Position numbers and translations under genes: made by a program. From IMG/VR virus record IMGVR_UViG_3300021364_000009, positions 32,572 through 96,571 of that record: a DNA stretch of 64,000 bases; one strand, given 5' to 3'. This DNA is from a virus. The notes beneath the pieces were generated by a model. The model did no database searches. It saw only the letters and a list, made by a program, of their open reading frames with translations, and was not told the origin of the DNA. This document shows, piece after piece, positions 13,620 to 55,766 of the stretch (its first letter is position 1; every line of letters starts with the position of its first letter).

Positions 13620-15201
13620 TACGAGCGTCCTCCAATAGTCCGTCAAATAGTTCAGCAACTTCGCTTGTACCGACTTCTACTATATCGGAATCTTCGTCGT
13701 TTTTGAGTCTCTTGCCTAAAACACTCTCAATTAAGTTCATCTTATTTCTCAGAGTTTTCATTACTCTATCGTCAATCGTTTTAGGGGCTACCATATGGTA
13801 GGCAAACACCTTGTCGTGAATACTACCGATGCGGATCATCCTACCTACAATTTGAAGATAATCTCCCGCTGACCAAGGCGTGTCATAGAAGATAACCGCT
13901 TTAGCTAGTTGAAGATTGACGCCTTCAGCCGCCGCCATTGTAATAAGACAGACTTTAACTTCAGACTTTTCGTCTTGGAAAGATTTCTGAGAGGCAAGTC
14001 TTTCTTCACCGCTCTCGGCTCCTGTGATACGGCAAGTCTTGATCCCCTTGCCTTCTATTTCTGCTTCTAAAATATCGACCATCGCTCTAAAGCGAGAGAA
14101 AATAATTACTTTCTCACCCTCCAAGTCTGTAGAAATAGTCTCAATCAGAGCTTCGAGTTTCCCACTGTCTCCATCAAAGTCGAGTAAAGCAGGGTGATTT
14201 ACGATTTGTTGGCAGATCGTCACCGCTGTCAGCTTTGTCACTTCACGCTCAACTAACTCGCCAGTTTCGGGGTCTATACACTCTAAGAATCCTTCCAAGG
14301 CTTCTTTGTATTTAGTCTTTTGAGGCTTGGTTAAGTCACACTTGATTACTTTGGTGGTCAAAGGGGGTAGTTCTTTCGCTACTTCATGTTTAGGTCGCCC
14401 TAAGAAATAGGGGTCTATTATCTTTCTAAACTCCTCTATGTCTGATTTCCTATGTCCCACCACTACGGGGATTCTACGCCTACCTCCCGGAAGGATTTGA
14501 TCTCTTGTAATACAGAAATGTCGCATAAATGCGTTCTTTGTAGTGAACAGGCCGGGGACTGTGACTTTATATATTGCCCACGCTTCCATGAGCCTGTTCT
14601 TAATGATCGTGGCGGAAAGACTCCAAACTCGCTCTGCTGAACCTGCGAGATGCTTACAGACCTGATGGACTTGAGACTTATCATTCTTAAAGGCAGTAGC
14701 CTCGTCAAAGACCATTACATGACCTGTAATATTTCTGAGGGTATCAAAGTCCATACACGCAGTCCTGTACCCCATGACAATCGCTTTAGGTCCTGCGTTG
14801 TAACTTTGAAATTCTGCGTGTATTTTTTCTCTCTTCTTTTTTGTCCCTAAACACTTGAATATCTTCACTCCATTAGTGAAGCGATCAAACTCTGCTTCCC
14901 ACTGACCTACCGCAGACTTAGTAGTAAGAATGATCGCAGGAACATCGGGACGCTTATCCCAAAGATAAGAGAGAGTTGCTATTACTTGGAGCGTTTTTCC
15001 AAGTCCCGTGTCGTCACCTAGAACAAAACGAGGCATCGCTAATAAATGGAGAACCCCCTGAACTTGATATTGTCTCAGAGTTAGCGGAACACCTTGTTTT
15101 ATTTCTGACTTGAGTATCTTACTTGGAGGAGCTTTAAGGTCGCTTTTAGTCCTTACTTTCCTCAGTTTTTCAATCGTTTTGATCAGTTTTTCTTCATTCA
15201 T
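13606..15201 (-). CDS. SNF2-family (SF2) helicase/translocase
   Basis: LRQYQ, LGDDTGLGKT, FDEAT, LSAT, EKVIIFSRF, EGVNLQ, QIVGRMIRIG. Confidence 0.92.
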   Translation of the reverse strand: MNEEKLIKTIEKLRKVRTKSDLKAPPSKILKSEIKQGVPLTLRQYQVQGVLHLLAMPRFVLGDDTGLGKTLQVIATLSYLWDKRPDVPAIILTTKSAVGQWEAEFDRFTNGVKIFKCLGTKKKREKIHAEFQSYNAGPKAIVMGYRTACMDFDTLRNITGHVMVFDEATAFKNDKSQVHQVCKHLAGSAERVWSLSATIIKNRLMEAWAIYKVTVPGLFTTKNAFMRHFCITRDQILPGGRRRIPVVVGHRKSDIEEFRKIIDPYFLGRPKHEVAKELPPLTTKVIKCDLTKPQKTKYKEALEGFLECIDPETGELVEREVTKLTAVTICQQIVNHPALLDFDGDSGKLEALIETISTDLEGEKVIIFSRFRAMVDILEAEIEGKGIKTCRITGAESGEERLASQKSFQDEKSEVKVCLITMAAAEGVNLQLAKAVIFYDTPWSAGDYLQIVGRMIRIGSIHDKVFAYHMVAPKTIDDRVMKTLRNKMNLIESVLGKRLKNDEDSDIVEVGTSEVAELFDGLLEDARNVYV

Positions 15202-15232
15202 ATGTCCTCCATTTCAGCATAGAGGACATATA
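15199..15232 (-). promoter_or_regulatory. RNA hairpin sequestering the SD and AUG of the SNF2 gene
   Basis: Perfect 10-bp inverted repeat 15200..15209/15222..15231, extendable to 14 bp with two G-U pairs on the minus-strand RNA; the 3' arm contains GGAGG and the start codon. Confidence 0.7.
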
Positions 15233-20133: not shown

Positions 20134-20331
20134 GAAGACTCCTGTTGTTGTTACGCCCGAAATCGGGGTTTGAAGTTGAGAAGCTCTGTGTGACAGTATC
20201 GGTCTTCGAGAGCTGTGGTTACTTTTCTCACAAACACCCACCCTGTGCAAGTACTTTTTTTATTTTTTTATCTTTTATGCTGTGGGTATTCTAGTGAGGC
20301 AGACACTAACGAACATATTGGAGAAAAAAAC

Positions 20332-23300
20332 ATGAACACTGAGGCTATTTTACAACTTTGCGTGGATAGAGCTACGAATCTCTATCTCTTGCACATCATG
20401 GGCATCCGTCTTGAGGCTATTCAAGGAGCAAATAGACAGAGAATTGTGGAAACAGAAAGCTCTAAGCTCTTTGCCAAGCTTTGTGCAAGCATACACCACC
20501 AAGGTGAAGAAGGTTTTGTGTTAATGGACGATCTTTTCAGATTGTGTGTTTGTCCTACTTTCAACACTTATGAAGATGTCAAAGAATACAACGCACTAGC
20601 GTCTGACAAAGAAAAGAAAGAGCTTATTTCTTCACGAAATATTTTAGTGCGTAGAAATAAGCAGGTTAAGTTCCTAGAGCAGTTGCACCGTACTGTTCGA
20701 GGTTACTTTAATTCTTACTTCAATAAGGCGATTGGGACTTTAATAAAGCAAGACATCACTCAAATCCAAGGTGTCCCCTCAGACGAGTATTTCGTAGGTA
20801 AGATTTTAGAGTTGGTTTCTGTCGGCAAGAGAGATGAGATTTTAGAGATTAGTTATGCACAAGAGTTTCTCCGAGAGCTTCCTGAGCTTCAGGGTGCATT
20901 AAAAGCAGACCTTCTTAAGAAATTACGTTTTAAAGGTAGGTCTACGCTCTACGCAAAAACATATGTCTTCTACAACAATAGAAGAATGAGAGGGACTCAA
21001 TTCCAAGGCATCAAAGGTCTTAGAATGAGAATCCTCAAAGATGCCAAATACTTTAATAATCAGATTAAGATGTATGCACAGGCAGAGCTTTCTAAGTATG
21101 TAGATCGTAGCTTCATCGGTGAGAACATGGAGCGAGAGATCACGGATGCTAACGAAGACCAACAGCTTTATAAGAGCGTGTTGAAGAAAACAGACGGCAT
21201 TTTTGACTTGATTGAAGGCAGAGAAGAGTCTGTAGAGAGATACAAAGAGGTCAAGAGAAATAAAGCTGATCTTGCGAGGACAGACATCACTAGAGAGACT
21301 ACGCTTGAAGAGCGTAAAGAAATACTAGACGCTCGCTCAGACTTTATAGAAGCCGTTGTTTCTGCGGTAAAGCATAAAGACGTTGCGAAAACTGACTTGC
21401 AGTTTATTTCAAGACAGCTTTTGAGAGATACTGCTTCTTCTTTGGGTGGGATCACAGATAATGATCGAAGAGCATTTCAAGAGTATGTAGGTTTCCTCCA
21501 AGACAAAGACACCATGATGGACGTTGTTGGAGACGCAGATGAACTAGAAGAACTACAGGGCATCTTGGAGAACATCTTAGTTCAAAATCCAGACTCTACT
21601 CAGATTATTTCTGACTTCATCGGTGCTATTTCTAAAGTCAATAAAGCTACAAAGAAAGCGATGGCTGAGGTTGGGGAGCATCTTGAGATCATTAATAAGG
21701 TGATCGAGCAATCTTCGGATCAGTTTAGTCCTTCAGAGTTTGATAGCGTTAGAGAACTCTTGTATCAGAGAAGACTGAACAAAGGTGATCTTTCTACTCC
21801 AGAAATACTCGATTTGTCTGATTCTGATCGTAGGGCTTATCTTTCAGGTTTAGCGACAGGCTATGCCAACGATTTCGTTAAGAATGAGGAAGATGTAGAG
21901 CGGTTTGTTATGGGTCGTCTCGGTAACGTAGAGAAGTTAGACGAGTGGAGGAGGCTCTATAAGTCTTCAGACCCTTCGGAGAAAGCGAAAGCAGAAGAAA
22001 TGCTTTCAGATTTTAGGGGGAGACTAGAGGCTGATCTTCGACCTCAAAGAAGAAGAGGGAGACAGAACAAGTCACGCCAAGATGTTCGTCTCAGTGCCTC
22101 ACAGACTCTTCTTGCACCTACAAACTCTTGGGTTTCTTCAAGAGAGAAGGACAAGAGCAGTAAATTCCCATACGCTGAAGCGACTGTTCCTCCACTCGAT
22201 GTACTCAAAGATGCAATTTCAGAGGTTCGTACTGATTTGTCATCAAGAGAAGTTACAAAGTTAGCGAAGGAAGCCCTCAGTGAGAACGAGAGCGTGTTTT
22301 TGATTGGTGGTCTTATTTCTGACTCTGACGGTAAGAAAAAGATTAAGACCGCTCTCGACAGCATGAAGATCATAGATCGTGACTCTTGGTTTAAAAAGAG
22401 AGACGCACTCTTAAAGAAGATCAAGATGGACGCAGTGAAAGAAATGGCGTTGTTGCGTTCTATAGAGGAGTTGTTGAATACAGACGCTGAGAATATCTTA
22501 ACTACAGAAGGCGTGGCAACAGAGCAAGACTTCTCAGACATGAGAGTCCTTACTGTTGAGAGAAATATTGATGCTTACACAGGAAGCGTACCTAAGAGTG
22601 AGCTAGTGAAAGCAAAAGAAGAAGCGTTCCGCCAACGTGCGGTTGCGTATTCAGCTTCGGACTTTGACCGTGATCTTTTTGAGTACGACAATGATCCTAA
22701 GAACAACTACGAGTCTGCCAAGAAAGCTTGGAAAGACGAAGTTGAAGATAAGCTCAAAGACGCACTTAAAATCTTGAAGGCGATGGGCGTTCAAGTTGAC
22801 GGTGACGAGCTTGAGTTGATGGTAGACAACAAAGAAGTTCCACCTCAATCTGAAACTAGCTTAGACGATCAGAAATATGCGGTAGCTCAAAGAAAGCTGT
22901 CTGCAATTTATGTCGCTTTGCAGAACTTAGATATAGACAGCGGAACTGACCGACTCGTACAAGAGTACAAGAGTGCCGCTAGTGCTAGAAGGACATTTGT
23001 AGATGGTCTTAAAGCTAAGTACAAAGAGAGCAGTGCGGCAGAAGAAATAGAGCAAGAGCTTTCAGATAAAGAGATGGAGACTCGAAATGAGCTTTCTCAG
23101 GGAATACAGCAAGCTCTTGAGAATCTACTAGAGAGCCGAGACAAGAACGAGTTTACGGGTGCTCGAAAGCGTAAGATGCAAAGAGCACAGGCAATTCGTA
23201 GTAAAATATATGAAGACCTCAACGCAAAAGTCACCGAAGCGGAGCGTAACCTTGGCTTTAAGAATGTCAACGATGTTCTCAGAAGTGCTAAGGTTATGGA

Positions 23301-24180
23301 CATGTCTCTAGCTTCTTTGAACAGTTTGCTTGATCTTTCAGAGTGTCTGCCTACAGCACCAGACCCTAAAGCGAATAAGATACTGATGAAGATGTATTTT
23401 AAAGCAGTAGATCAGGGTCTAAGCATTTTTGCAGACTTTAGCACAGGCGTCTATCAGTCAAGTGACTTGAAGTTCCCCAATGATTTCTTAAACGCTCAAA
23501 TTGGTCTTGATCTTATCAAGAGCTTCAGAAGAGGTTTACGTTCTAAGTATAGTCCTAGAATGGCAGACCATATGGATTTCTTTGGTATAGATAACAAAGA
23601 CAATACTATGGTTATGCCCGACAATACTTTCGGTGTCGATGCACTCGACAATGTGCTTCGAGTGAATAAGAGTATTGATGGGAGCATTGGTTCTATTCCA
23701 GAGTCTTTCTTTACAGGTGCTTATGCTCCTATTTTGGAGATCGTTCAGTTCTCACAAGATCGAGTCAATGTCGCAATAAAAGGTGACAAAATGACTTACA
23801 CTAATGAGGACGGGGTAAAGCTAACCCACTCTATTTCTCAAATTCAGAACGACATGAAGGCTCTTATGGTAGAGCGACTTGCTTCAGACTTTGGTATTTC
23901 TTCGGCAGACGCCACTACGATTATTGATGGTTTCCAAAACGTGATCGAGAAAGAAGACCAAGGGATCAGAATTGCACGATCTCGTCTTATGCTAGAGTGG
24001 TTTAGATCAGCAGTCATGGACTTGGCTTATCTTTCCTCTGTTTGGGCTTTAGAGTCTATTACAGGCGATCTTGCAGACCCTGATATTTCTGATGAGTGCC
24101 TTGACTTCATGGATAGTCTTGCCACAGATGCAGATAAGCGAAAGACGGCAAAGAAAGTACAAAAAGCTCTCGGGAACTGA
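20332..24180 (+). CDS. large charged alpha-helical hypothetical protein
   Basis: GGAG SD before ATG 20332 (in frame with ORF 20215); D/E/K/R-rich, coiled-coil-like. Confidence 0.75.
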   Translation: MNTEAILQLCVDRATNLYLLHIMGIRLEAIQGANRQRIVETESSKLFAKLCASIHHQGEEGFVLMDDLFRLCVCPTFNTYEDVKEYNALASDKEKKELISSRNILVRRNKQVKFLEQLHRTVRGYFNSYFNKAIGTLIKQDITQIQGVPSDEYFVGKILELVSVGKRDEILEISYAQEFLRELPELQGALKADLLKKLRFKGRSTLYAKTYVFYNNRRMRGTQFQGIKGLRMRILKDAKYFNNQIKMYAQAELSKYVDRSFIGENMEREITDANEDQQLYKSVLKKTDGIFDLIEGREESVERYKEVKRNKADLARTDITRETTLEERKEILDARSDFIEAVVSAVKHKDVAKTDLQFISRQLLRDTASSLGGITDNDRRAFQEYVGFLQDKDTMMDVVGDADELEELQGILENILVQNPDSTQIISDFIGAISKVNKATKKAMAEVGEHLEIINKVIEQSSDQFSPSEFDSVRELLYQRRLNKGDLSTPEILDLSDSDRRAYLSGLATGYANDFVKNEEDVERFVMGRLGNVEKLDEWRRLYKSSDPSEKAKAEEMLSDFRGRLEADLRPQRRRGRQNKSRQDVRLSASQTLLAPTNSWVSSREKDKSSKFPYAEATVPPLDVLKDAISEVRTDLSSREVTKLAKEALSENESVFLIGGLISDSDGKKKIKTALDSMKIIDRDSWFKKRDALLKKIKMDAVKEMALLRSIEELLNTDAENILTTEGVATEQDFSDMRVLTVERNIDAYTGSVPKSELVKAKEEAFRQRAVAYSASDFDRDLFEYDNDPKNNYESAKKAWKDEVEDKLKDALKILKAMGVQVDGDELELMVDNKEVPPQSETSLDDQKYAVAQRKLSAIYVALQNLDIDSGTDRLVQEYKSAASARRTFVDGLKAKYKESSAAEEIEQELSDKEMETRNELSQGIQQALENLLESRDKNEFTGARKRKMQRAQAIRSKIYEDLNAKVTEAERNLGFKNVNDVLRSAKVMDMSLASLNSLLDLSECLPTAPDPKANKILMKMYFKAVDQGLSIFADFSTGVYQSSDLKFPNDFLNAQIGLDLIKSFRRGLRSKYSPRMADHMDFFGIDNKDNTMVMPDNTFGVDALDNVLRVNKSIDGSIGSIPESFFTGAYAPILEIVQFSQDRVNVAIKGDKMTYTNEDGVKLTHSISQIQNDMKALMVERLASDFGISSADATTIIDGFQNVIEKEDQGIRIARSRLMLEWFRSAVMDLAYLSSVWALESITGDLADPDISDECLDFMDSLATDADKRKTAKKVQKALGN

Positions 24181-24187
24181 GTTTTTA

Positions 24188-24200
24188 ATACTTAGTTTAT
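24188..24200 (+). promoter_or_regulatory. putative late promoter motif
   Basis: ATACTTAGTTTAT overlapping the 5' arm of the RBS hairpin. Confidence 0.55.
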
Positions 24201-24251
24201 TCTCCTAGAATGTTGTGAGAGAAGATTTAACAACATTCTAGGAGAGTAAAC
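24195..24251 (+). promoter_or_regulatory. 22-bp stem hairpin occluding the SD of the first baseplate gene
   Basis: gtttattctcctagaatgttgt (24195..24216) pairs with acaacattctaggagagtaaac (24230..24251), one G-U. Confidence 0.85.
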
Positions 24252-25295
24252 ATGAGCGAAGATGCTTTGTTAGCACACGCTTGTCCTCACCATATAAGGT
24301 ATGAGAGGGCAACGATTATGGGGGGTAGAGAAATAACCACCCAATCTCCTATTTCTTCCACTAATCTTCTCGTTTTAAGATTTAATGGGGAAGAAATACC
24401 CAAAGAAGGTTTAGTGCTGGCATCTGAGACTGTGTTCCCTTCTTCAGCTCCTTATCGTTTTACCTCAAGCACAAATACGCTCTTAGTCTTATCTGACGGC
24501 AAAGAAAGAAACATACAGTTCCCAACAAACCTCCTATTTACTCAGAAAGAGATAGTTTCCTTCTTAAATAAAGAGCTTCCCTTTCCCGTGTATGCCGAAC
24601 CTTACGAGTCTTCTGTAAAACTGACTAACCAAAAGAATAGTGAGAGCTTGTCTCTTAAAGGTACAGCTTTGGCAAAACTAGGGTATGCTTCTACTAAGGT
24701 TTTCGTAAGAAATAAGAAAAAGATTGGGGAGTGGGGTTTACAGAAGCGTTTTGGAGGTGGATATAAGATATTCTTCAAGAAAGAAGAACATTTTGACGGG
24801 ATTGTGGATATTTCTTACCTCACAGAAAAGAATTTTTGCAGAAGGTGTGCAACTACAGGAGTTGAGAACGACTTCAGATTTGATGAGAGAGGCGGGATAA
24901 AGACGATTTCAGACCATAACCTGCTTTATCAGTCTCTTTCTAAAGTTCTTCTTACAGAGATTACCTCAAACCCATACCATAATTGGTATGGCTCTAACGC
25001 TATGACTTTAATTGGTCGTAAAGTTAGTGCTTCTGTAGTTCAGTCCCTTCGTGCGTCTGTTCGTGATGCTCTTACTACTTTTAAGAATGTCCAAGATCAG
25101 CAAGCCTCTATCCAAGATATGTCTTTGAAAGAAAGATTGCGTAGGGTGGTAAGTATAGATGTTTCTACTATTGGAGAAGATGAAACCTCTTATTTGGTTT
25201 CTATTGTGGCAGAGAGTATGTCTAGTGAACAAGTAAGCATCAACCTTGTATTTGCTGTTCCTGGTTCGTTTTCATTAGATGGAGATTTGACATGA
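24252..25295 (+). CDS. baseplate wedge protein with C-terminal gp25/GPW-like domain
   Basis: DFRFD...LYQSLSKVLLTEITSNPYHNWYGS pattern of gp25-like proteins; precedes the J-like gene. Confidence 0.7.
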   Translation: MSEDALLAHACPHHIRYERATIMGGREITTQSPISSTNLLVLRFNGEEIPKEGLVLASETVFPSSAPYRFTSSTNTLLVLSDGKERNIQFPTNLLFTQKEIVSFLNKELPFPVYAEPYESSVKLTNQKNSESLSLKGTALAKLGYASTKVFVRNKKKIGEWGLQKRFGGGYKIFFKKEEHFDGIVDISYLTEKNFCRRCATTGVENDFRFDERGGIKTISDHNLLYQSLSKVLLTEITSNPYHNWYGSNAMTLIGRKVSASVVQSLRASVRDALTTFKNVQDQQASIQDMSLKERLRRVVSIDVSTIGEDETSYLVSIVAESMSSEQVSINLVFAVPGSFSLDGDLT

Positions 25296-28200
25296 TTAAG
25301 ATTATTAAGCCCGATGGGAATACCGTAGAAACACCTGTCCACTATAGTACAAGCCTACAAACAGTTTATATACGAGGTCTAGTGCCAGTAGAAGTTAATC
25401 GCATAGAAATAGAATATGCGAATACGAGGTTTTCTCCCGAAGACGTATATGTAAACAACGGACAATTTACTTTCCCTAATCCAAATGTATTCTCAGAAGG
25501 TATTGATCTTTCTACAGGTCAAAATAACTTTAAGATTAATGCTTTCAATAATAACATTTCGTATGGGATGTTAGAGCTGAATGTCATTTTCTCTTCTGAC
25601 GTAGTAGGCTTGGCAACTCCTCCAAGTGGGTTGAAAGTCAACCGCTCTAATAACTTCGTAGAAATATCTTTCGACCATATAGACGAGAGTGTTTCTTACT
25701 ATAATATCTATGCGAGTAGTGTTTCAGGTGGTGTTCTTAGTAACTATTTTAAAATAAACTTCGAGCCACTTAGTCCTAGCAAATATGGGAAGAGAGAAGA
25801 AATCTCTAGTCCGATCAAAGAAATCTCTTCAGACATGAGTGTTGAGCCTGTAGACCCTCTTTTCTTAGAATTGTCCGTACAACAAAAAGACGTTTCTGAC
25901 GTAACTCTCTCTAACAATGTTCTTGATGCGTTTGAAGTGCCTGAGACTGTGAGTCGAGTTCGTATTTCGTCTTCTTTTCAGAGTGTCGCTTTAAAGACCC
26001 GTGTTTCTTTTAATCACTTTAGAAATGCAGAGCCAACCTCTATCCCCCCTACCATACCTGTGGGTGTTCTTAGCTCTACTCCTTTAGATAAGCCTCTCTA
26101 CTATGTGGCGACTTCCGTTAAGGTTATCGGAGGTGTAGAAGTAGAGAGTGCTATTTCTAGTGAAGTTTCGGGGATGCCAATACAAGTGACAAACACCACA
26201 CTCTCCCTACCTGTTGTAGGGAGAGATCAAATGGCTACGGATATGATTCAGAGTATATTTCTAGCCCAACCTAACATTGCGGTGCAAGCAGGTTCGGTGG
26301 TCAGAGATGTGATCATAGACCCCTTCTTGTCAGAAATGGAGCGAGTTCGTTTCCTTTTAGATTTCTGTTATCGTTCTTCTTCTTTTTCGGGGTTGCTCAG
26401 TATTGACGACCCTCTAAATGAAGGGGCTTCTATTCCGGTAGAGGATAGTCAATATAAAACTGTCTTAACCCAAGCTCTTTTTACAACGGAAGACCAAGTT
26501 CAGTATTTCATAGACTCGGCATTTGAAAAACTTGCCTCTAATTTTGGAGTGAGCAGAAGTATAGGAAAACAAGCTTCTGGTGAAGTTGAGTTCTTTACTA
26601 CCACAACACCTACTTCTTCTATTTCTATACCGACAGGCACTGTGGTTTCTTCTTCCACTTCGGATTTCATCACCACCCTCTCTGTTGTGATGAACGTAGA
26701 TCAGCTAAGTCAGTATTACAACCCTACCACTAAGAAATACTCGATCACGGTTCCAGTCCAAGCTTTAGAAGCAGGTCTAAATGGTAATTTGACCTCTGAC
26801 CAAATAAATCAAGGAGCACCTTTTGGGCTGAAAGTGACGAACTCAGCCCCTACTTTTGGAGGGACAGAGACTGAGACCAACTCAGAGTTAGCTTCAAGAG
26901 CTTTAGCTACTTTATCCTCAGTCGATGTAGGTACGAAGGCCGGCTTAGAGCGTGTTTCAAGAAGTATTGCAGGAGTAGTTAACAGCTTTGTAGTGGACAG
27001 CGAAAGTCCTTTCATGCAAAGAGATGAGGGTCTTGGTGGGAAGGTAGACGTGTGGGTAAGAGGCGAGAGTTTAGCTACTGTTTCAGATATTTATGCTCCG
27101 AGCTACCAATCTCATTTTGAGAGCAGATTCATTCCTATTTCTACAGGCTATGTTTTCAGAAATATGGAAGCTACTGTAGAGTCTCCTATTTCTCAGATGA
27201 TAGACCGAGGAAATCTAGGCTTTGGGTTGAGAAACCTAAGTACCTCTACAGTATTTGATCTTACAAACGTGACGGTTTTAGACTACAGGACGATACAGCT
27301 CGACAACACCATCCCCCAACCAACCTACAATGTGGCAGACAACATTGTGGGAGATTGGAGATCGAACGTCTCAAGTAAAATCGTTTTAAAGAGACAACCG
27401 GTAAGAGAAATTAAAGCGATAAGCTACGCTGAAGGTACAGAAATCTCAGATTTTGTTTTTGTAGACAAAGAGGACGCTCTTAGATTGGGACGTTCTTCAA
27501 AGTCTTCTGACCATGTTTTGATCACGAATGACACCACAAGAAATAAGATTATTTCCATTACGGGAGAGGCACATACTGTAGTTGGGTTCTACCCTGAAAG
27601 GCTTGGAAATCTTGGAGTCGATCAGCTTTCTATAGTTGTGTCGGATGTTGCAGGGACGACAATATACAAAAGCCCGTTTTTGAACGACTCTCCTGACTAT
27701 ACTATTTCAAGAGACTCTAATGACATTACTTACATACAGAGAACTTCAGACAGTGCCATAAAAGACGGAGACGTGGTTCATGTTTCTTACGAGCACTTGG
27801 AGAATATTGTTGTTAGTTACGTTACAAATCTAGTCGTATCAAACGCACAAAACAGCATCGACAATAGTAAGAATATCTTTGCCGATATTGTAGTGAAAGA
27901 AGCTATCGGTTGTTTTGTTGATATAAAAGCTACCGTAGTTTTAGATCGTGGAGTTCGGTCTACGCTTGTAGATTCAGAAATACGCTATGCTCTGACTTCC
28001 TTCATCAATGAATCTTCTCTTGGGGGTTCAATAAGACATTCAGAAGTAGTCACCGTTTTGAATAGCGTAGATGGCGTAAATCATGTGGTGTTGCCTTTAA
28101 CTCAAATGTCCTTCGCACACGACACCTATATCCTAAGAGAGGGTATTTCTCTTGGGTCTAGTGGCTTCAATCGTGTGCCTTCTCTCTCGAATTCAAGAGT

Positions 28201-28564
28201 ATCTGTGTGGGCAATAGACTCAGAACTTTTAAATAAGACACAAGACTTAGGTGGGGCTAGAGGTCGAGTCTTTATCGAGAAAGAAGAAATGAGGATGTTG
28301 GACACTTTGGAGAGGGTGAACTCGCCTTCTTGGGAACATAAAACCTGTACCATCGTAAATGATGTTGGCTTAGGTATAGAGGGTATAAAGACCAACAACA
28401 GAATTTTGATTGCTTTAAATATAGGGGAGAGTCCTTCAGAGTATTCTTACTATGTAGACTACAATGTTGAAGGACAAATAGAGACAGTTTCGGAACTCAA
28501 GCTAAACAACTTCTCTTTCTTTAGAACAGGTGATCTGAATTTCACATATGAAGAGGTACAGTAA
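25292..28564 (+). CDS. baseplate J-like (gp6-like) wedge protein
   Basis: GSVVRD, LASNFGVSR...ASGEVEF, IPTGTVV, VQALEAGLNGN, GGTETETNSEL, GKVDVWV. Confidence 0.85.
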   Translation: MIKIIKPDGNTVETPVHYSTSLQTVYIRGLVPVEVNRIEIEYANTRFSPEDVYVNNGQFTFPNPNVFSEGIDLSTGQNNFKINAFNNNISYGMLELNVIFSSDVVGLATPPSGLKVNRSNNFVEISFDHIDESVSYYNIYASSVSGGVLSNYFKINFEPLSPSKYGKREEISSPIKEISSDMSVEPVDPLFLELSVQQKDVSDVTLSNNVLDAFEVPETVSRVRISSSFQSVALKTRVSFNHFRNAEPTSIPPTIPVGVLSSTPLDKPLYYVATSVKVIGGVEVESAISSEVSGMPIQVTNTTLSLPVVGRDQMATDMIQSIFLAQPNIAVQAGSVVRDVIIDPFLSEMERVRFLLDFCYRSSSFSGLLSIDDPLNEGASIPVEDSQYKTVLTQALFTTEDQVQYFIDSAFEKLASNFGVSRSIGKQASGEVEFFTTTTPTSSISIPTGTVVSSSTSDFITTLSVVMNVDQLSQYYNPTTKKYSITVPVQALEAGLNGNLTSDQINQGAPFGLKVTNSAPTFGGTETETNSELASRALATLSSVDVGTKAGLERVSRSIAGVVNSFVVDSESPFMQRDEGLGGKVDVWVRGESLATVSDIYAPSYQSHFESRFIPISTGYVFRNMEATVESPISQMIDRGNLGFGLRNLSTSTVFDLTNVTVLDYRTIQLDNTIPQPTYNVADNIVGDWRSNVSSKIVLKRQPVREIKAISYAEGTEISDFVFVDKEDALRLGRSSKSSDHVLITNDTTRNKIISITGEAHTVVGFYPERLGNLGVDQLSIVVSDVAGTTIYKSPFLNDSPDYTISRDSNDITYIQRTSDSAIKDGDVVHVSYEHLENIVVSYVTNLVVSNAQNSIDNSKNIFADIVVKEAIGCFVDIKATVVLDRGVRSTLVDSEIRYALTSFINESSLGGSIRHSEVVTVLNSVDGVNHVVLPLTQMSFAHDTYILREGISLGSSGFNRVPSLSNSRVSVWAIDSELLNKTQDLGGARGRVFIEKEEMRMLDTLERVNSPSWEHKTCTIVNDVGLGIEGIKTNNRILIALNIGESPSEYSYYVDYNVEGQIETVSELKLNNFSFFRTGDLNFTYEEVQ

Positions 28565-34104: not shown

Positions 34105-34117
34105 ATAGTCTTTCTAT
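34105..34117 (+). promoter_or_regulatory. putative late promoter motif
   Basis: ATAGTCTTTCTAT immediately before the RBS hairpin. Confidence 0.5.
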
Positions 34118-34182
34118 TCTTTCTTGTTGTTGATTTATGTGTTGGTAAAATAAACTCCAACACATAACCCCGATAAGGAGGA
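34118..34182 (+). promoter_or_regulatory. long imperfect hairpin occluding the SD of the gene at 34187
   Basis: Perfect 11-bp inner stem 34135..34145/34157..34167; 12-bp outer stem 34118..34129/34171..34182 (four G-U) covering AAGGAGG. Confidence 0.7.
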
Positions 34183-34186
34183 CTAG

Positions 34187-42077: not shown

Positions 42078-42145
42078 TTGTTCTTTAATACTCTCAGAGT
42101 ATCACAACATTGTAGGTGTAAAATATTTAAAGCGAGGTTCTAAAC

Positions 42146-45100
42146 ATGGCTTCTGATTTAGATCGTTTGAAGAAGGCTTCTCTAAACACACAGGCTACGA
42201 ATAACACGGAGTCAGAGCATTACTCAAGAAATAGGACGGTTCGTTCAGAAGAAATCAAATCCGGATTGTCTAGGTTTGAAGGTTCTTGGGCGAGCGATTT
42301 TTCTTTTGGAGTCAGCAATAAAAAAGACACACATCCTCTCCCTAGTATAAAGACAGGTCTAGGTCTGCAAGGTTATGGGGATATAGATTTTATCCCATAT
42401 GTGGAAAACACAAATAGAATAGGACTGGAGGGAGAAGCGACATTAGGCTCTCCTATTTCTTTTGAAGTGATAGGGCCTACTCTTAAGTCCCCTCTTGTGG
42501 ATTGGACTTGGCAGATCGCAAGATACTCAGATGGTGAGTATTTAATCCTTTGGGATGCAGGTAGTGGCACAATCCCTAGTCTCTATGGGATTAATGATAA
42601 TAGTAATCTAGCATACCCCTACTCTAACATCTCAGACGATGAAGGTCTTTATGTTATTCTCCGCAGTTTCGGTAGAGACCTTGATTATTTGGATGGTGAT
42701 CGTGAAAGAACCCCCTATCACATTTTTAAAGTAGCTGAAAATGGTGTATTGGACTATAGCGTAAAAATATCTAGCGACACTCCTATTTCTGACGTTTTAG
42801 ATTATTCGACGGATAACACAATAGCGGGGGTTACTTTTGTACGAAAAGTAGCTTCACGCATGTTCTGTGTCCCTTCAAGTAATCGCCAGACTTTCTTTGT
42901 CATGCCACCTGAAAAATCGCTTTCATTAGACATTGAGCCACCTTTCGAGGCGTGGCTTGATGGTTCTTTTGACGGTCTTGGCAAGTCAGGTAGTGTAGAA
43001 ACCTACGGAAATAGATCAAATCTTCCTGTACTAAGCCCCTTACAATATGAAGGTGTAGAAATATTTAATGGGATCATCCTTAATGTTTCAACTCCTGCTG
43101 TCTCTACTTTTAAGATTTATGTAGACGATGAATTTTCAAAAGGGTCAAATATTTTAGACGGAAAAACGGGACTAGAAACTCAGCAACTCTTAGGGACTCT
43201 ATTTAAAGTTGGTTATGTAATTAGAGTTGTATCTATTGAAGAGGAAGCTTCAAATCGTTATCTAGGTTACTTTGAAATTACAGATATTCAGTTGTCGGGT
43301 GGTTCAGCGTCGGGACGCTCTCCTCTCGAATTGACCTTGAAAGGTGTGACGACACAAAACCACATTTCAGGAAATATCAGTTGGGATATTGCTTCTGCGG
43401 ATTCACAATATGATATAAAATTTACAGTCCATGAGAGCGTTTCAGACTTACTTAGTAAGAGCAACCCACAGCCACACGAAATTGATTCTACAAGAATAAA
43501 GTCTCTTATTTCTCCACTACACTCAGATCGTTCTTCTAACGTAAGACCTACGATGATGAGAGCAAATGACTGTACTTGGGGAGAGGGTGAGATTTCTAAT
43601 CTTCTTGATCTTGGGTTTAAAGCCGTTATCTATAACCCCAAATTGCAAGGTTCCAATCTTGTTGCGGATTTCAACAGCCCTGTAGACTCAAACTTATACG
43701 AAATAGACTATGAAGGTGCTACAATCTATTTCCACGAAGAGGTTGTACAAGAAGATAAGTATTTAAACCATGCACAAAACCCAACAGGTAGTCCGGTCTT
43801 ATTTATTTCTTGTGTTCCCCTAAGTCAAAATGCTTCCTTCGGAAATAGATTTACAGCGAAAGAAGAGGGGATCGTAAAGGGTGCGTTTAAGACACCTACT
43901 ATTAAGAATATCCTAAGCGGAGACACAGCAACCTTTGGCAAAACGCTGTCAGAAATCCCAGATTTCCCTTCTTCGGTTTATTTACCAGGTATTTCTTTGG
44001 GTGAGATACCAAGTACAGGTGCAATCGAGTTCCGAAAAGATTTAAGTCAGTTTGGTACTGAAAATGTGGAGTATGTTACTGCTACCTACAACTTAGTAAC
44101 TTCACATCTTGAAGGAGTAGTTCTTAAAATATCTTCCACGACACAAATTGGAGATTCGATGGGGACTTATGGTCTTTCAAATCCCCTTCACATCGAGTTT
44201 GTAAGAAACCCCTCTGTTTCATTCAGAGAATCTATATATGCGGGATTAAGCCTCCGAACGGAAGAAGTTACTTTTGCACATGGTCTTATTTCTTTAGATG
44301 AGCGTGGGAATCAGACTCTTGAAGTAAGTGGCTTATCTACTGAAGAGTCTTCTATTCTCTATGATAGTTCAGAGAATAAATGGGAAATATCCGGAGACTA
44401 CAATGTAAATCTCTCTGTAACTAGAGGAGACCTTGTAGCTTCCAATGTCGTTGAGTTTGATAATTCCGATTTAACTATTGCTCCGTATTCTCAGTCTTTG
44501 AAGATTTCTTCTTCGACATCTTTTAATGAGCCGGGATGTAGTTTTACTTTTACGACTGAAGATGGTTTCGGAAACCACGAAGATTTGAGAGGTTATTATC
44601 TTAACACAGAAGCTGTAACCATAATCACAAAAGAAACCCTATCTATACCTCCAAACAATAGGATTGTTTTTGGTTTAGATTATATCCCTGATTGCCACAA
44701 CCCTTTTGCATCTGAATGGTACAAGTCCGAACTTCATGTAGAGGTAGTAGGTTCTGAAGAGGTTGGGGATTTCCTGAAGTCTGCACTTCCTTCAGAAAAA
44801 CAGCCTGCCATTTCTTACGACGCAAGTGATGTTAATGATGGACATGTTTCGATTACAGGCAGAAACGCCTGTATCTATCCTGCATATGCACTTGTAGAAA
44901 CAGCTCAGATTTATGAAATCTCGGCAGAGATTCATGCTCAATTAGGAGGCACTTATACCCTACCTGCATCAAGATATTTACTTTCCTTAGAGAGCACCGA
45001 GCCGGGCTTAGAAGATCGTTGGGTCAGCTTAGTTGTAAACAATGAAGCAATAAGCTTTGACACAGACGATTATGTGGACGTTGTGTCCATGCTTGAGTAT

Positions 45101-48100
45101 ATCGCAGAAAAGCTAAACAAAGACCTTTATTTTGGACACTCCGCACGACTCTTAGATCGTGCTGGTTTCTATGACAGCCAAGGTCAAGATTGGGATGGTA
45201 CAAATTATACGTCAAATGGTGGACTAGATGCCAGCATTAAAGGTACGGCAGGGGATCAGTATGGTGAGCGTCAGATTCTTTGGGTCTCTCCTTCAGATGT
45301 ACGTCACCCAAAGTTTTCAGAGTTTAGTCTTACAAACTATGCTTCACATACTTTAGCACTTATTTGTACGGGTAGAGGTGCAAGCAAGAGCTTAAATGGT
45401 ACACTTGATGAGATGAAAGAGCAGTCTATTCTCCAAGAGAATAGACTCATAAATGTCATTGCCTCTATCGGTGAGATAGATCAATCTTTCATGTGGTACA
45501 TCTTTAAAGATGGGCTTACCAAGTTCAACCGTATTGGCTACTACCATAGAGAAGAAACTCTTGCAGATAACACTACGGCTACAGGAAATCCCACAGTAAT
45601 GGGACAGACAGGAAACCTTGCTTTAGGTTTCCCTAGTGAAGGTATTCTTCCTTTAGGTAGGCTTCTTGGTGAATCTTTCAGAATAAAAGCACAAAACACC
45701 ACTTATGATGGTCGTTGTGATTTTGAGGTTGGTTTTGTAGATGACCCTACAGGCAGACCTGCCTACTACCCTATAAGAAGCAATCTTACACTATCTTATG
45801 ACAGCACATACCTAACATCAGGACTACCAGATAAAGCGTCAGAAAGTTCAGATTTTGCAATACAGAACAGCTGGCTCGACAATCAGAGCTTTGCTTTTGA
45901 AGGAAGCTCTTATGAAACTCCCGATTTCAGAAATTACGCTTGGGTGTCGAGAGATTATTTCTCTAAGCTGATTTATGATGGTGCTACTCCCTACAACCAA
46001 GACCCTTCTGTGGGCGGTTATGTCGAAATACATGCAACTTTCTCTGCGACTCCAAAAGAGAGAAGTTATTTTTACGGAAGTTATTTAGGTGACAATGATA
46101 ACAATCTTGGACATGAAGACTATGTTGCTAAGATTGACTCCTCTAAATTTATCACCCCTCTTATCGACAGAAGTGTTCTCCAAAAAGGAGACCTGTTCTA
46201 CATAGCAGGCTCTGACTCCCAACCTTCCCACCATAAAGCAACGATAATAAGTGTTGTAAATGAAAGTGTTTATTCAGAGAACACGAAGATTTCTTTAAGA
46301 GTTTTAATGCAAGCAGTGGGGAGTCAATTTGGAGGTTTCAGTCAGATCAAGCCTAGCTTCAGACCTTCTGTTTCTGAGATTGTCCTCGAAGATGGGAAAT
46401 TTAGACCAAACTATCTTAACTTCACATATAAATCCGCATCTCTTGTAGTTGGGAATAATGTCCTTTGGAATGAAGGGAACATTAAAAGTCTGCTGAACAC
46501 ACAGTCTGTCGCAGATTATGCCTCACCTAACAACACTGAGAGAAGTTCTTCAGCGGTAGATGGTGGGTTTGGTACATTTGGCTCTCAATCTGCCACTCTT
46601 ATATCTGGAGGTCGAGTAGGTTTATTTACAGGACTCCCTTTATCTCAGACAGGTATTTCTTTTGCCTCTATCACAGGAGGACACACTTCGGGTCAATATA
46701 TAGAAGTAGACCCTACCTACAGCAATTATGAGAAAAAAAGCTACAGAGTCTTCGAGACTTTCTTGGATCATGGTGTATTTCCTTTTGTAAGTCTTCCTTC
46801 AGGTTCAGGTTCAGACAATGTGGGTACGCTAGGTCATCTTTCTAGCGACAGCACAAAGAAATCGAATTACAAAGGTGCTGTGTTCGGAGGAACTGCGGGT
46901 CTTCGTGTTTCGGGGGACATACAACTCTATGTTAAGAATGCTCGTCCTTTTGGGACAGATAGATACACAGCGTTTATTGTACATTCAGACAATGCTCCTG
47001 CCACCACCACAGACTATTTAATCGGAAACAGTAGAGTAACTGAATCTATTAACGAATATTGGAAAGACTGGGAGCCTTCTACCACAGGCTCCATTGGCTA
47101 TTTCTCACAAAACGGAAGAAACAGTCAGCAAAGAGGTGCAGGAGCACATATGCCTGCTGGCGTAGGTCTGTTTGGCTACAACAACACTTTTGGTGGCGTC
47201 AATGGAGCTAATGCTTCTGTAAGAAGAACTGCTACAGTCTCTTTAGGACTTACAATCGCAGATTTGAAGGGTATTTCTGCAAGTTTAGGTCAAAACCTAG
47301 TTGATCAAATGGAAGACCAAGGAAAGTTAAACCCCTTTATTGGTGAAAACAATGATCGGTCTGCTTCCAAGACGGGTGAAACATTATTTGAAATAGGTCA
47401 GTCTTCAGTTTCAGACTTTAATACCATGACTCTACCTGCATTGAGAGGTAGTTATCTTTACTTGGAAAGTAAAGGTCTTGATCAGTCTGACGGCTATTAC
47501 AAGATCATAGACGTTCCTGTTATTTCTCCCATAGATGCTTCCTCTCAAGAATCTAAGTTCGGAAGTGAAAATACATTACACGGCTATATTTCTGACTATA
47601 ACTCAAAAGTCAGAAATAGTCTTTCAGCTATCGTGGCGAATGTTACTGTCAGAGTAGAATCTAACAGATACCTTTCAGAAATACCCAACGAATCAAACAA
47701 TAGTCGTATAACCCGTGTAGATCAGATCACTCCTCCACAGAATAAGATTAGAGATACTTACGACAACTTAACTAATTCTTATAAGTGGAGAATTTTACAC
47801 CACGCAGGTAACGCTGCTGGTACAAATTTTCAGCAGGTATACGTTTTTGACGTTGAGAATAGCGGAGGTTCACCAACTTCTTCTTCTTCAGACTTACAGG
47901 GTATAGAGATCAGCCCAAGAGCACTCGGCAAGCAATCTCTACCTGCTGAGTTAATTCCTCTAGCGACATCAGACAGTCCTTCTGACACCCCCACAGAGCT
48001 GACCACCCCCAATAATCTCTCACCTCTTTCTTATGACCCTAAAAACTTTACGATGCGACTCTTAGGTGTACATCGTAATATGGACATGAGAGGTAAGACA

Positions 48101-51100
48101 AGCTCAGTCGCATTTGTTTGTCTTGAAGATGAGGCTTCATACGACTTCTTCCAAGGTGATGCAGGAGGAGAAGAAATAAGGACTCAAACTCCTATCTCTG
48201 ATCTCGTTGAAGTAGTTGGAAACACACCTGCACGTCTTGTAGTTTATTCTTCAGAAAGATCAGACAGGCTTGACGAGTCTTACGCAATTACCACCAAAAG
48301 AAGATTTGAAAGTGGAGAGTCTGGTTTTGTTTCTCTAGGATACCCTGAGAGAATGGGTCTTGGCATTGTCCTTGATGGTGGATTGGGTGTCGTGAGTGGA
48401 AATGCAGTAAGAGTCCACCCACAAAAAGGAAGCACAGACTCACTAGGTGCTCTTTTACTTTATTCTTTCCCTTATGCAGACCCTAGAGATGATGTCAGAG
48501 ATGGGGACGCTGTTTCACTCCCCTCAAGATTTAATCGAACTGAATTCTATGGGGACGTGGTTGTCGCAGGATATAACTCAGATATAGTTATTGAAGACTC
48601 TCGTTCCGCTGAAGGTTCCTTTGCTAGAATAAATGAGAACGAAGCGTCTGCTTCTACTGTAAGAAACCAACAGTCTTTGACGATTAGTTATGCAAGCCTC
48701 TCTAATCAGATGAGAGTCACCCACCAAAATAAAAATGACTTCCTTACTGATGGGAGTTTCTCAGAGTATATAGATTTCTTCTTAGACTCAGAAATCGGAA
48801 ACTATTTCAGGAAATTAGATTTAGGAAATGGTAATTTTTATAATTACATAGAGTCTAACTTGTTTAGAAATATTCCAGCCCCTCCTCTTCCAAACGACAC
48901 TTTATTTCCTTGGACTAACGTGGGGGTTAGAGTTAAGAGTAGTGGCGGATTGGTTTACGAGAGAGCTTTCAGACCTCAAGACGCTACAGGTTCTGACGTT
49001 GTTGTTTCTCACAGTAAAGGAGCAAAGTCTGACCGTGGTATTAAGGGGCTAGAAATACCTGCATTTGGAGAGTGCTTGCTTCTTCCAAAAGGACCGCCAA
49101 CTCTAGGTGGTAGAGTCCTCGAAAACAGCGAGGGAGCTAAAATAAGAATAGGGAATACACCTACCGACTTACCGCTATACGAGTTCTATAATGGTCCGAC
49201 TAGGTTAAACTATGGGGGTACTCACGCTATTTCTATAGGAAATGTACTTCAAGAACATGGAGTTTATGGAAGACCTGGATTCCCCACCACAGAAAATGAG
49301 AAACAGCTTCTTTTTGCCCCTAAAGGAAATAATTCTCAGAGTGACCCAATCGAATACGATCCAGGAATCTTATCTCAAGCATACCACCATTCAAGATCAA
49401 ATGGTTCTGATGAGTGGGGTGGTCGTAAAGAAATCTTAACTCCAAAGAGCAATAAGCTTTATGGTTATCTTGCTCTCTTGAAATTCTCAGGTGGATCTTT
49501 TAACTTTACGAATGCTCCAAGTGGCAGACCTTATTATTTCGATCAGTATTTCTCTTTGTTTTATGTTTATCGAGGCAAAGTCGTATATATTGAGTTAGAT
49601 TTGATTGAGGATGCTTTTCAACCTCTTCCGATAGAGCGTAGAACAGGAGATAAACCTGAGTATCAATATGTAAATACAGGGAATAACACGCAGTCTTCTG
49701 TAATTGGGAGAGATGTGTATGGTTCGCATACAAGTGATGTTTCAAGAACAATAGAGCCAAACTTCTCTTTCTATGTTCCGGATGGTATCCAACACGTTTT
49801 TGTGGAAGTGAAAGGTCGAAATGACAATCCTCTTTCAGCTAATCAGAATACAGGGTGGAATATCTATTCCGCACACGGTCTATTACTTAGTACGAAGAGT
49901 AGTGTAACTCTTACATTACCCCCTGAAAATACATCTAATGCTCTAGTGTCGGGGGCTAATGCTCTCGACTATTGGGAATATATAAGCCCTCATAACCATA
50001 ACCTCGGCTCTCTCGCCACTTCTGTAGAACATAAATTCTTAGACTACTCTGGTCGTGCGTGGTTCTACGCCCCTAATGGTTCAATCTCCAATTTTGAAGA
50101 GATTTTACATTCGATTAATTGGACTGCGAACAATTTTGCCCCTGTATTATCTGGCAAAGCTGCTCTTAAATATTCGTATGTAAGAATATTAGGGAGCTAT
50201 ACACAACTGAACGATCTCTGTTATGGTACTAATACAGGTATTACTCCTTTTGCAGATAATAATGAGGTTTTCGACCGTGTGTTTGAAGTGCCTGATTCAG
50301 ATGTTAATAGTGAAGTGTATGAAGAAGGTTCAGAAAGAGTTAATTCAAACCTACAAGTGCGTCTTCTTGACGGCATGGTTTTAGAAGATGTGACGACAGG
50401 GACTTTTTACACAGTAGGAGAAATAGGAAGATACAGAGGTTGGCACTCTCATATGAAGCCAACTTCTCAAGTGGGTGACTATGTTCACTACGAGCATGGT
50501 ATGCACCTTCTTGATCAAACTCAACATACGCCTGAGATGGAAGAAATATACGGAAGCCCTTTAATTCGTAATGCTAATTTTGGGTCTATTATTTCTAGTA
50601 ACGGACATTCTTCTCCTGAGATTCTTACTGATCTTTCAAGTCACTTCAACTATGAGCGATCTATGTATGGGTATTTAAATGAAGACTCTTATCCTACTAC
50701 TCAAAGGAAGAATGGTTTTGGAGACATTGTAGACAATGGTTATGTTCGTAGACCTTTGTTAGGTCATAAGTTCAGAGTTGTACCTAATGTCGAGTTTGTT
50801 CCTGTTCTTGGTTATCGCTCGGTAAGAGGTGGTCTTTGTGTGCCATATGACCCAAGCACTAGTTACCAAGGATACATTAAGAATGCGGATGCAGTTCTTT
50901 TTGATGCGAACTATTCTTTCTTAAAAACAGATATAGGGAAGAAAATCTATATTTGTGGGACATATGAGTACGGCTATGTGGGTTGGTGGGTTGTCACAGA
51001 TGTGATCTCAAATTATGTTATCAATCCTACAATGACAGGTAGTTCTGAAACCTTTGAGGTTGCAGTTGTTAGAAAGATTAAGAGGTCTGGTGAATACCTA

Positions 51101-55036: not shown

Positions 55037-55752
55037 TGATTATTTTTACTAGGTCTGACAATAAACCTGTTCAGACTACTCGACACTTAAACGAAAACAT
55101 TGAGATGAATGGGAAATACGTTGTGGATTTTCCCGACTGTATCAGAGTAGATAGGCTTGATGGGACGCCATTGGAAATAGTGTCGAGAGAGGTGGAGCCT
55201 CAGTTTTTAAAGCAGTATCCTTCCTACGACCACGTTATCTATAACCCTATCATTCACAACTATGCCTTTTTAGACAGTTCTCAGAATTTCCCATTCTCCA
55301 CAGGGCAGACAGCTTCAAGATATAAGATAGGGGAGACACCTAACTCTTTTGCAGTGTTACCCGTGAATACGAGCACCTCTTGGAAAGGTGTTGCAGTAAC
55401 TCAGAGTATAAACATTTCTGCACAGACCGACGACGGATTGGGAAGAGAAACCTTTCTTCTTTATTGGAGAGCGGTAAGAAAAATAGTAACACACGATCAG
55501 TCACCGCTTTCTCCCGAACCTTCTGTGAGTTTTCTTGGCAAAGAAAACAACCCTTCTCGAATGAAATATGTCGAAGCAGAAGAAGATTCTCAATACTCAG
55601 TTTATATTTCTAACAATGACGGCAACACATACGAATTAGCAAAGAGGCTTACTCCCGTAAGTTTTGAAGAAAGAGCAGAAAATATAAGAATCGCTTTTGT
55701 GAATCACTCTTCTGAAGACATCTTCTTTCTCTCGTATGCCCTTATGTTTTAA
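55036..55752 (+). CDS. hypothetical structural protein
   Basis: ATG overlaps the upstream TAA (TAATG); GGGAG SD. Confidence 0.7.
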   Translation: MIIFTRSDNKPVQTTRHLNENIEMNGKYVVDFPDCIRVDRLDGTPLEIVSREVEPQFLKQYPSYDHVIYNPIIHNYAFLDSSQNFPFSTGQTASRYKIGETPNSFAVLPVNTSTSWKGVAVTQSINISAQTDDGLGRETFLLYWRAVRKIVTHDQSPLSPEPSVSFLGKENNPSRMKYVEAEEDSQYSVYISNNDGNTYELAKRLTPVSFEERAENIRIAFVNHSSEDIFFLSYALMF

Positions 55753-55766
55753 GGAGAATATGTAAA

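Follow-up and report, generated by a model that had tools for sequence, protein, structure and literature searches.

A hairpin over the ribosome binding site of a gp25-like baseplate gene overlaps a promoter-like motif in uncultured phages

Background

In phage T4, the late promoters of e (lysozyme), soc, 49 and I-TevI lie in the DNA that encodes the 5′ strand of an inhibitory RNA structure (Uzan and Miller 2010, PMC3014915). In long transcripts of these genes the Shine-Dalgarno sequence (SD) or the AUG is paired, RNA from the late promoter is without that strand and is translated, and the arrangement is kept in relatives. Here we analyze a similar arrangement upstream of a gp25-like baseplate gene in a 64,000-nucleotide stretch of the uncultured phage record IMGVR_UViG_3300021364_000009 (the window). 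A preliminary description of the window had compared it to these four T4 genes, a parallel that is as stated, and had proposed that RNA reading through from upstream is silent while RNA started within the hairpin is translated. We found support for this logic in selection on the sense RNA, in a promoter-like motif, in an association between motif and hidden ribosome binding sites that depends on the upstream gene, and in the computed release of the SD when RNA starts past the motif.

The locus differs from the T4 genes in several respects. Where these have TATAAATA, the locus has a bipartite motif, ATA-N5-TTTAT, whose promoter activity we infer. The core of this motif would lie at approximately −31 to −16 relative to the predicted start, as compared to −13 to −6 for the T4 gp55 promoters. 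The lineage is unrelated to T4 and consists of uncultured jumbo phages; the closest GenBank records are LR745208.1 (an uncultured 485-kb “huge phage”), which is the nearest, Tunturiibacter phage Tunturi_5 and then Bacillus phage G. The scale is also different, in that roughly 25–50% of motif genes, including major virion genes, have a hidden ribosome binding site here, versus a few genes in early regions of T4. Finally, the read-through RNA would probably come from another virion gene, unlike in T4. The gating logic itself is thus already known from T4, and what is new is the lineage, a putative promoter with an unusual predicted geometry, and the scale.

T4 gene 25 belongs to the same baseplate wedge family and likewise has a conserved hairpin at its translation start. 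According to work of Nivinskas and Malys, as cited in the above review (PMC3014915), that hairpin is located between the SD and the AUG, unites them and enhances initiation. By contrast, the 3′ arm itself holds the SD of the present locus, normally spaced from the start codon, and none occurs upstream of the stem. Because of this, the effect of the hairpin here is inhibitory, opposite to that in T4 gene 25.

Two other kinds of hairpin are comparable. In the mom/Com system of phage Mu, initiation at a late gene is blocked by a stable hairpin that conceals both SD and start codon. Unlike in the model that we propose, there is no embedded promoter in Mu, and a protein binds beside the hairpin and opens it. 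A Com-like protein was not found here, although no search was aimed at one. RNase III hairpins, such as the T7 intercistronic sites and the lambda N leader, are also long intercistronic stems, and their cleavage can free an occluded ribosome binding site.

Results and discussion

A hairpin at the start of the gp25-like gene

The elements at the start of the gene are as follows (positions are those of the window; nt, nucleotides; aa, amino acids).

24186 to 24201, + strand: promoter-like motif TAATACTTAGTTTATT, with the core ATA-N5-TTTAT at 24188-24200 (ATACTTAGTTTAT); recognized from non-coding enrichment, orientation, spacing and distance to starts in five genomes (G000, G001, G002, G004 and G005)
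24195-24216, + strand: hairpin 5′ arm GTTTATTCTCCTAGAATGTTGT, overlapping the last 6 nt of the motif; read from sequence, fold and covariation
24202-24205, + strand: anti-SD CTCC, which pairs with GGAG at 24241-24244
24215 to 24217, + strand: candidate transcription start, at motif +15 to +17, where the 5′ arm meets the loop; suggested by composition
24217-24229, + strand: loop of 13 nt, GAGAGAAGATTTA, read from the sequence
24230-24251, + strand: hairpin 3′ arm ACAACATTCTAGGAGAGTAAAC, which holds the SD AGGAG (24240-24244) and whose final base directly precedes the ATG at 24252
24252 to 25295, + strand: gp25-like baseplate wedge/sheath-initiator gene, 347 aa (phrog_43 and phrog_975; PF10934 weak)

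The stem has 22 base pairs (bp), of which one is G-U (T24200/G24246), and the SD is buried up to the base before the ATG. The coordinates in the preliminary description were exact. Its placement of the motif over the 5′ arm, with CTCC just after, is also confirmed, and our bipartite motif is near its definition. The minimum free energy predicted by RNAfold is −37.6 kcal/mol, as compared to a mean of −14.4 kcal/mol for shuffled sequences (z = −8.0), and 0 of 200 dinucleotide shuffles were as stable. The hairpin is the longest inverted repeat of the window. Given that M1 and S2 are nearly invariant in 23 homologues, the start codon of the gp25-like gene is confirmed and can be regarded as secure. 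No Rfam family matched at its gathering threshold, and only generic microRNA-precursor hairpin models gave scores (17–30 bits versus thresholds of 53–160).

We rejected two other readings of this region. A split SD, as at T4 gene 25, does not apply, since the stem is not preceded by an SD. Translational coupling was also rejected: since a ribosome terminating at 24178-24180 should reach only approximately 24190, based on known ribosome footprints, it would not open the stem.

We consider it likely, with moderate confidence, that promoter choice sets a translational gate at the gp25-like gene. RNA entering from the upstream 1321-aa gene would have both arms and fold into the 22-bp hairpin. With the SD hidden up to the ATG, such read-through RNA would be untranslated, as approximately 25 kcal/mol would be needed to open positions −15 to +3 of the gene. 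The promoter-like element that belongs to the gene itself, TAATA-N5-TTTAT, is located where the hairpin begins on its 5′ side, and would probably be read by the host RNA polymerase together with a phage sigma-like or helix-turn-helix factor. Initiation would occur downstream of the anti-SD, most likely 16 nt past the motif (24215-24217), where the loop begins. The short RNA would then lack the 5′ arm, leaving its SD free for translation.

Conservation of the hairpin

Identity among homologues of the gp25-like protein extends from 97% down to 39%. We searched viral contigs with a profile, which resulted in 49 loci, with the 97%, 69% and 62% homologues left out of the locus comparison, and folded the 110 nt that precede the ATG of each locus. 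In all lineages between 79% and 40% protein identity, there is a hairpin of 13–22 bp that bears the SD in its 3′ arm and ends 0–7 nt before the ATG. The stems share no sequence across lineages (e.g., TCTCCTAGAATGTTGT, CTCACACTCTCTTTC, AACCTCAATGTCTGT and TTATCATCGGTAGTCTAGT). No hairpin was found in the 37–38% clade or in the high-G+C outgroups (LR745208.1, L006-L008, L019 and L064-L066).

MAFFT alignment followed by RNAalifold yielded no consensus structure, the stems being too divergent for sequence alignment. In place of RNAalifold, we used a covariance model based on two sequences, those of the window and of the 79% relative, and this model found the element at the gene start in 15 of 15 relatives searched. 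In the resulting alignment, 92.3% of cells are paired (59% in shuffled data and 40–50% with slid partners), and the covariation score is 0.61 (0.16 and 0.09–0.14, respectively), where the fitting of the alignment to the model makes the pairing counts lean towards structure. The preliminary description had suggested a search for covariation in related genomes, and in this alignment compensatory double changes are present in 22 of 22 pairs (15.2 in shuffled data and 12–17 with slid partners). In independent folds of each sequence, every stem position has 3–5 types of Watson-Crick pair.

The relatives' stems contain 25 G-U pairs and no A-C mismatches, and the fold of the + strand is the more stable one in 14 of 16 cases. 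Given these two observations, the sequence comparison indicates that the selected structure acts in the sense RNA.

In three relatives (L031, L034 and L043), 6 to 8 consecutive U (last stem base included) come between the stem and the gp25-like ATG. This tract is confined to these three among the relatives checked, and their hairpin could also terminate upstream transcription, in addition to locking the ribosome binding site. Such U runs, which are like those of intrinsic terminators, raise the question of whether the hairpin is mainly an intercistronic element, i.e., an RNase III site, a 3′ stabilizer of the upstream mRNA or a terminator. That the SD is hidden and the motif overlapped would then be by-products of a compact genome. 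The perfect 22-bp stem of the window is long enough for RNase III, reaching the approximately 20 bp of continuous double-stranded RNA found in substrates of this enzyme. However, the stems of relatives, with 13–19 bp, are short for RNase III, and in contrast to RNase III sites the element has a conserved loop and a promoter-like motif at its foot. The U tract is missing from most relatives and from the window, where the 3′ arm is followed by ATGAGC. Moreover, the SD is always in the 3′ arm, which stops 0–7 nt short of the ATG, and the 5′ arm stays between the motif and +16 in all cases. We therefore regard a mainly intercistronic role as very improbable.

The ATA-N5-TTTAT motif resembles a promoter

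The motif is kept at the gp25-like gene in all hairpin-bearing relatives, with the family consensus TWATA-G-TTT-n-TTTAT-A. The exact 13-mer with at most 3 mismatches is not over-represented (43 found versus 41 expected). Our first guess at a motif, TAGTTTAT, was dropped, as two of its four non-coding copies are not kept in the syntenic 79%-identity relative (G001) and the bipartite ATA-N5-TTTAT fits better. We counted copies on both strands, and three near-complete relatives (G002, G004 and G005) were fetched once the pattern was fixed. The contig that contains the window is G000. The counts are as follows.

G000, ATA[GC]N4TTTAT: 12 in total, 8 non-coding, 0.45 expected, p = 2e-9 (non-coding DNA is 3.8% of the total)
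G001 (79%-identity relative), ATA[GC]N4TTTAT: 10 in total, 9 non-coding, 0.63 expected, p = 2e-10
G002 (312 kb, terminal repeats), ATA-N5-TYTAT: 73 in total, 43 non-coding, 4.1 expected, p = 7e-35
G004 (376 kb), ATA-N5-TYTAT: 89 in total, 55 non-coding, 6.1 expected, p = 6e-41
G005 (297 kb), ATA-N5-TYTAT: 76 in total, 51 non-coding, 4.0 expected, p = 1.5e-46

Non-coding DNA makes up 5–7% of the three near-complete genomes. The reversed (not complemented) pattern shows little or no enrichment, and neither N4 nor N6 spacings are enriched, so that N5 is strict. In G002, 40 of the 43 non-coding sites point at a gene start, mostly from a distance of 27–53 nt. Sites in tandem gaps have the sense direction, those in divergent gaps point outward and convergent gaps have none. 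This distribution is what would be expected of a promoter, and argues against an RNA-processing site. We accordingly treat the motif as a putative promoter.

If the motif were nonetheless a processing site, an endonuclease (host RNase E/Y-like or phage-encoded) would cut polycistronic RNA past the motif, remove the 5′ arm and so activate translation. The geometry predicted by such cleavage is identical to that of the promoter model, and AG/UUUAU resembles the A/U-rich, single-stranded sites beside a stem that RNase E uses. However, divergent sites face outward and are not reached by sense RNA from upstream, a situation that applies to 58 of the 147 motif genes (tandem or divergent). In addition, the strict N5 between two half-sites fits recognition of DNA by a protein, and the long RNA folds with half of the motif in base pairs. 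We give processing only a slight chance of being the correct explanation.

A consensus scan of the + strand from 23554 to 25841 found no sigma70-type promoter (TTGACA-17-TATAAT). Similarly, a profile of 149 aligned non-coding sites has no hexamer resembling a −10 element from the motif to +16. The T4 late promoter sequence is absent from the site, and this octamer is unremarkable in these genomes (5–12 per 100 kb). The assignment of the motif to a “late” class is not supported by this analysis.

Motif and hidden ribosome binding sites across genomes

We called a gene locked if at least 12 kcal/mol is needed to unpair its positions −15 to +3 within the RNA from −110 to +20. Locks are associated with the motif, as follows.

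G002: 14/33 motif genes, 28/245 other genes, p = 4e-5
G004: 11/44 motif genes, 46/365 other genes, p = 0.04
G005: 24/48 motif genes, 40/263 other genes, p = 5e-7
Pooled: 49/125 motif genes, 114/759 other genes, p = 2e-11, odds ratio 4.3

The lock also depends on context. Motif genes with a same-strand gene upstream are locked in 43 of 89 cases (48%), versus 12 of 58 (21%) for divergent motif genes (pooled p = 9e-4; Cochran-Mantel-Haenszel p = 7e-4). Genes without the motif exhibit no such contrast. Given this dependence on an upstream same-strand gene, the lock fits a device against read-through RNA, whereas a lock on the gene's own mRNA would be independent of context. An intercistronic element of the kind discussed above would likewise be expected only between co-directional genes, but the enrichment of locks is specific to motif genes.

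The partners that pair with the SD cluster at +2 to +15 after the motif, and many different genes have TTTAT followed immediately by the SD-pairing strand. The same design would thus be used at many genes of the jumbo-phage clade, with the approximately 15-nt spacer between promoter core and start carrying the anti-SD.

Some individual genes illustrate the variety of such structures. At 34105-34186 of the window, the motif ATAGTCTTTCTAT is followed by a two-part hairpin over the AAGGAGG of the gene at 34187, a repetition of the design seen at the baseplate gene. Long RNA from this site needs 15.8 kcal/mol for opening, versus 4.6 kcal/mol with a start 9 nt past the motif. In one relative (L051:7548-7627), a 794-aa gene upstream of the baseplate gene has this module at its start as well, with AATCGTTAGTTCGTTTAT and then a 17-bp hairpin that holds both SD and ATG. 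On the − strand of the window, at 15200-15231, a 13-bp hairpin (ATATGTCCTCTAT / ATGGAGGACATAT) hides the GGAGGA of an SNF2-helicase gene, with an opening energy of 20.3 kcal/mol. This last hairpin is not kept in the 79% relative, and its motif-like match is too near the ATG for a promoter.

Transcription start and release of the lock

The preliminary description had proposed folding long versus truncated leaders, and doing so shows that starting the RNA past the motif dissolves the lock. The energy needed to open positions −15 to +3 drops from 25.4 kcal/mol in the long RNA to 20.7 kcal/mol for RNA from 24201, 14.6 from 24204, 8.5 from 24206, 6.0 from 24208 and 2.1 from 24210; it is 3.0 kcal/mol from 24213. 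RNA from 24207 has just a 10-bp 5′ hairpin left and its AGGAGA is unpaired, whereas RNA from 24201 remains locked. The offset of the start is therefore decisive. For long RNA, the opening energies of 55 locked genes have a median of 15.8 kcal/mol, which changes to 10.8 with a start at +1, 7.0 at +7 and 3.8 at +16; the last of these equals the baseline of unlocked genes.

The composition of the 149 aligned sites suggests where this start might be. A C/T-rich stretch extends from +3 to +15, and the sequence is A-rich after a purine peak. The peak is located exactly 16 nt after TAT (77% R and 56% A, versus 51% and 42% at the two preceding positions), and holds in every distance class, in each genome and at unlocked sites (82%). 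SDs do not begin before +15, except for six outliers, four of which have weaker variants of the motif. In ten lineages, GTGAGA, which is conserved in the family at the baseplate gene, begins at +15 to +17. Based on the purine peak and GTGAGA, our best guess is a start at 24215-24217, rather than at 24205-24210 as previously predicted. A start downstream of the anti-SD, as predicted earlier, remains likely, while its exact place is probably a different one; the revised start is still within the limits set at that time, i.e., neither upstream of 24195 nor downstream of the loop. A start where the arm meets the loop would also explain why motif and loop are always equally far apart.

A different possibility is that the motif is a promoter with its start at +1 to +3. 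The hairpin would then be at the 5′ end of the mRNA, which it would stabilize and silence until it is opened by a loop-binding protein, a helicase or RNase III; Com of phage Mu would be the matching precedent. The motif can be read as a contiguous, T7-like TWATAGTTTnTTTAT followed by A or R, and A is indeed present at 50% of sites at +1, as for a contiguous T7-type promoter. RNA from 24201 retains a 16-bp stem that includes CUCC:GGAG, so a start at +1 to +3 would keep the lock, and a stem that starts at the first bases of the transcript would explain why anti-SDs cluster just past the motif. A loop that is kept while stems vary is also a property of protein-bound operator hairpins. However, approximately half of the locked genes, including major virion genes, would stay above 10 kcal/mol in their own mRNA. 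Moreover, a start at +1 to +3 predicts neither the dependence of the lock on an upstream same-strand gene nor the purine peak at +16 and the accompanying switch in composition. We also found no T7-type RNA polymerase, in a search without a positive control. We judge this possibility to be unlikely, if less so than the processing and intercistronic explanations.

Candidate factors that could read the motif

Searches of five near-complete relatives gave no match to Rpb1, Rpb2 or T7-type RNA polymerase domains, where only the T7-type search is the one without a positive control. A conserved open reading frame (ORF) of approximately 205 aa (L072:5322-5933, − strand; L009:2999-3613, − strand; also in G005 and G006) matches phrog_1740, “RNA polymerase sigma factor”, with E-values of 1e-5 and 9e-4; its match to Sigma70_r2 is weak. 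Another ORF, of approximately 190 aa (e.g., G004 42581-42724), has two Sigma70_r4-like helix-turn-helix matches. Both ORFs are candidate readers of the motif, and both are outside the 96.6-kb contig of the window.

The conserved loop

The loop together with 24215-24216 forms a sequence conserved in the family, GTGAGAnAAnATTnA. It is kept in the window and in L024, L025, L057, L028, L030, L031, L043 and L046, though their stems differ completely, and it begins 15–17 nt past the motif. The loop sequence recurs nowhere else in these genomes, and the genome scan does not support the idea of the loop as a second promoter copy or a recurrent motif. GTGAGAnAAnATTnA may represent the first transcribed bases, a site bound by a protein or a standby site for ribosomes.

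Evidence weighing against promoter choice

In addition to the frequent A at +1 and the lock that persists in RNA from 24201, several observations weigh against promoter choice as the function of the hairpin. The conservation of the loop is not accounted for by this model. In the 79% relative, the anti-SD is CACA, with two mismatches; its SD is still within the helix, with an opening energy of 14–15 kcal/mol. If the offset were +7, resembling that of sigma70, release of the lock would be incomplete in L046 and the L035 clade (10–14 kcal/mol). The contrast between tandem and divergent genes is not significant in G005 alone. More generally, the lock counts depend on crude gene calls and start choices, and genes of related genomes are not independent samples. 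The sigma-like matches are weak. Finally, the upstream gene looks like a virion gene, which makes a need to silence its read-through RNA less obvious.

Genomic context

The window covers the final 64 kb of one phage contig, which has a length of 96.6 kb, a G+C content of 40.8% and no terminal repeat. Because relatives that share the baseplate gene have 220–376 kb in IMG/VR, the 96.6-kb record is probably a fragment of a jumbo-phage genome of approximately 300 kb. The 79% relative is rated 27% complete. A blastn search of the region against GenBank phages gave no match, and a metagenome scan found just the same 79% relative and one distant locus. The genes and elements adjacent to the hairpin and the gp25-like gene are as follows.

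20215 to 24180, + strand: upstream co-directional ORF, 1321 aa, from the ORF list; stop codon at 24178-24180, and real start probably at 20245 (the atlas record begins at residue 11)
24169 to 24186, + strand: weak terminator-like element across the stop codon, with a 5-bp stem CTCGG/CTGAG and TTTTT; from a consensus scan
25292 to 28564, + strand: baseplate J (gp6-like) gene (PF04865, 4.5e-17; phrog_6, 2e-23), which overlaps the gp25-like gene by 4 nt; the operon continues

The 1321-aa upstream protein has no match in Pfam, PHROG or atlas searches. In relatives, a co-directional ORF of 430–1600 aa stops 52–117 nt ahead of the baseplate gene. In the window this distance is 71 nt and contains the weak, unconserved terminator-like element. 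As the element is not kept in the 79% relative, efficient termination by it is improbable. The 1321-aa gene, which probably is a virion gene too, is the likely source of read-through RNA. Since it is probably a virion gene, the lock may serve to insulate neighboring units rather than to time expression.

We noticed two further features elsewhere. A palindrome, ATACTCTCAGAGTAT, occurs at 42088-42102 of the window, in the gap ahead of a 4296-aa ORF (region 42146-60938); Pfam, PHROG and atlas searches gave no match for this ORF or the next one, of 1723 aa. In a relative (L015:8421-8530, − strand; genome 28421-28530), the strand of the replication genes has a polynucleotide-kinase-like gene with an extended −10 of the host type (TGTATAAT) and a terminator-like hairpin ahead of it. 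Genes on this strand of L015 may use host sigma instead of the phage motif.

Conclusions

More tentatively, the observations could be part of a larger scheme, which we consider possible, if doubtful. ATA-N5-TTTAT would represent a new class of phage promoter, with its core at approximately −31 to −16 and no −10 hexamer, and would be read by phage factors or an undetected polymerase. The untranscribed spacer of approximately 15 nt would be a genome-wide slot for anti-SDs, each co-directional unit of these 300-kb phages would be translationally insulated, and GTGAGAnAAnATTnA, as the first part of the baseplate mRNA, would be a separate regulatory site for the sheath-initiator gene.

The analysis provides a promoter model for these phages, for which none existed before: each genome has approximately 45–55 sites, the bipartite core is strict, and transcription is predicted to start 16 nt past it. 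This model helps to delimit transcription units and to annotate gene starts. If promoter choice is indeed the function of the hairpin, the element would be a compact natural part for insulating genes from read-through. It would also mean that the promoter-dependent translation device of T4 is a general design rule in an unrelated clade of uncultured jumbo phages, where it would have evolved around another promoter.

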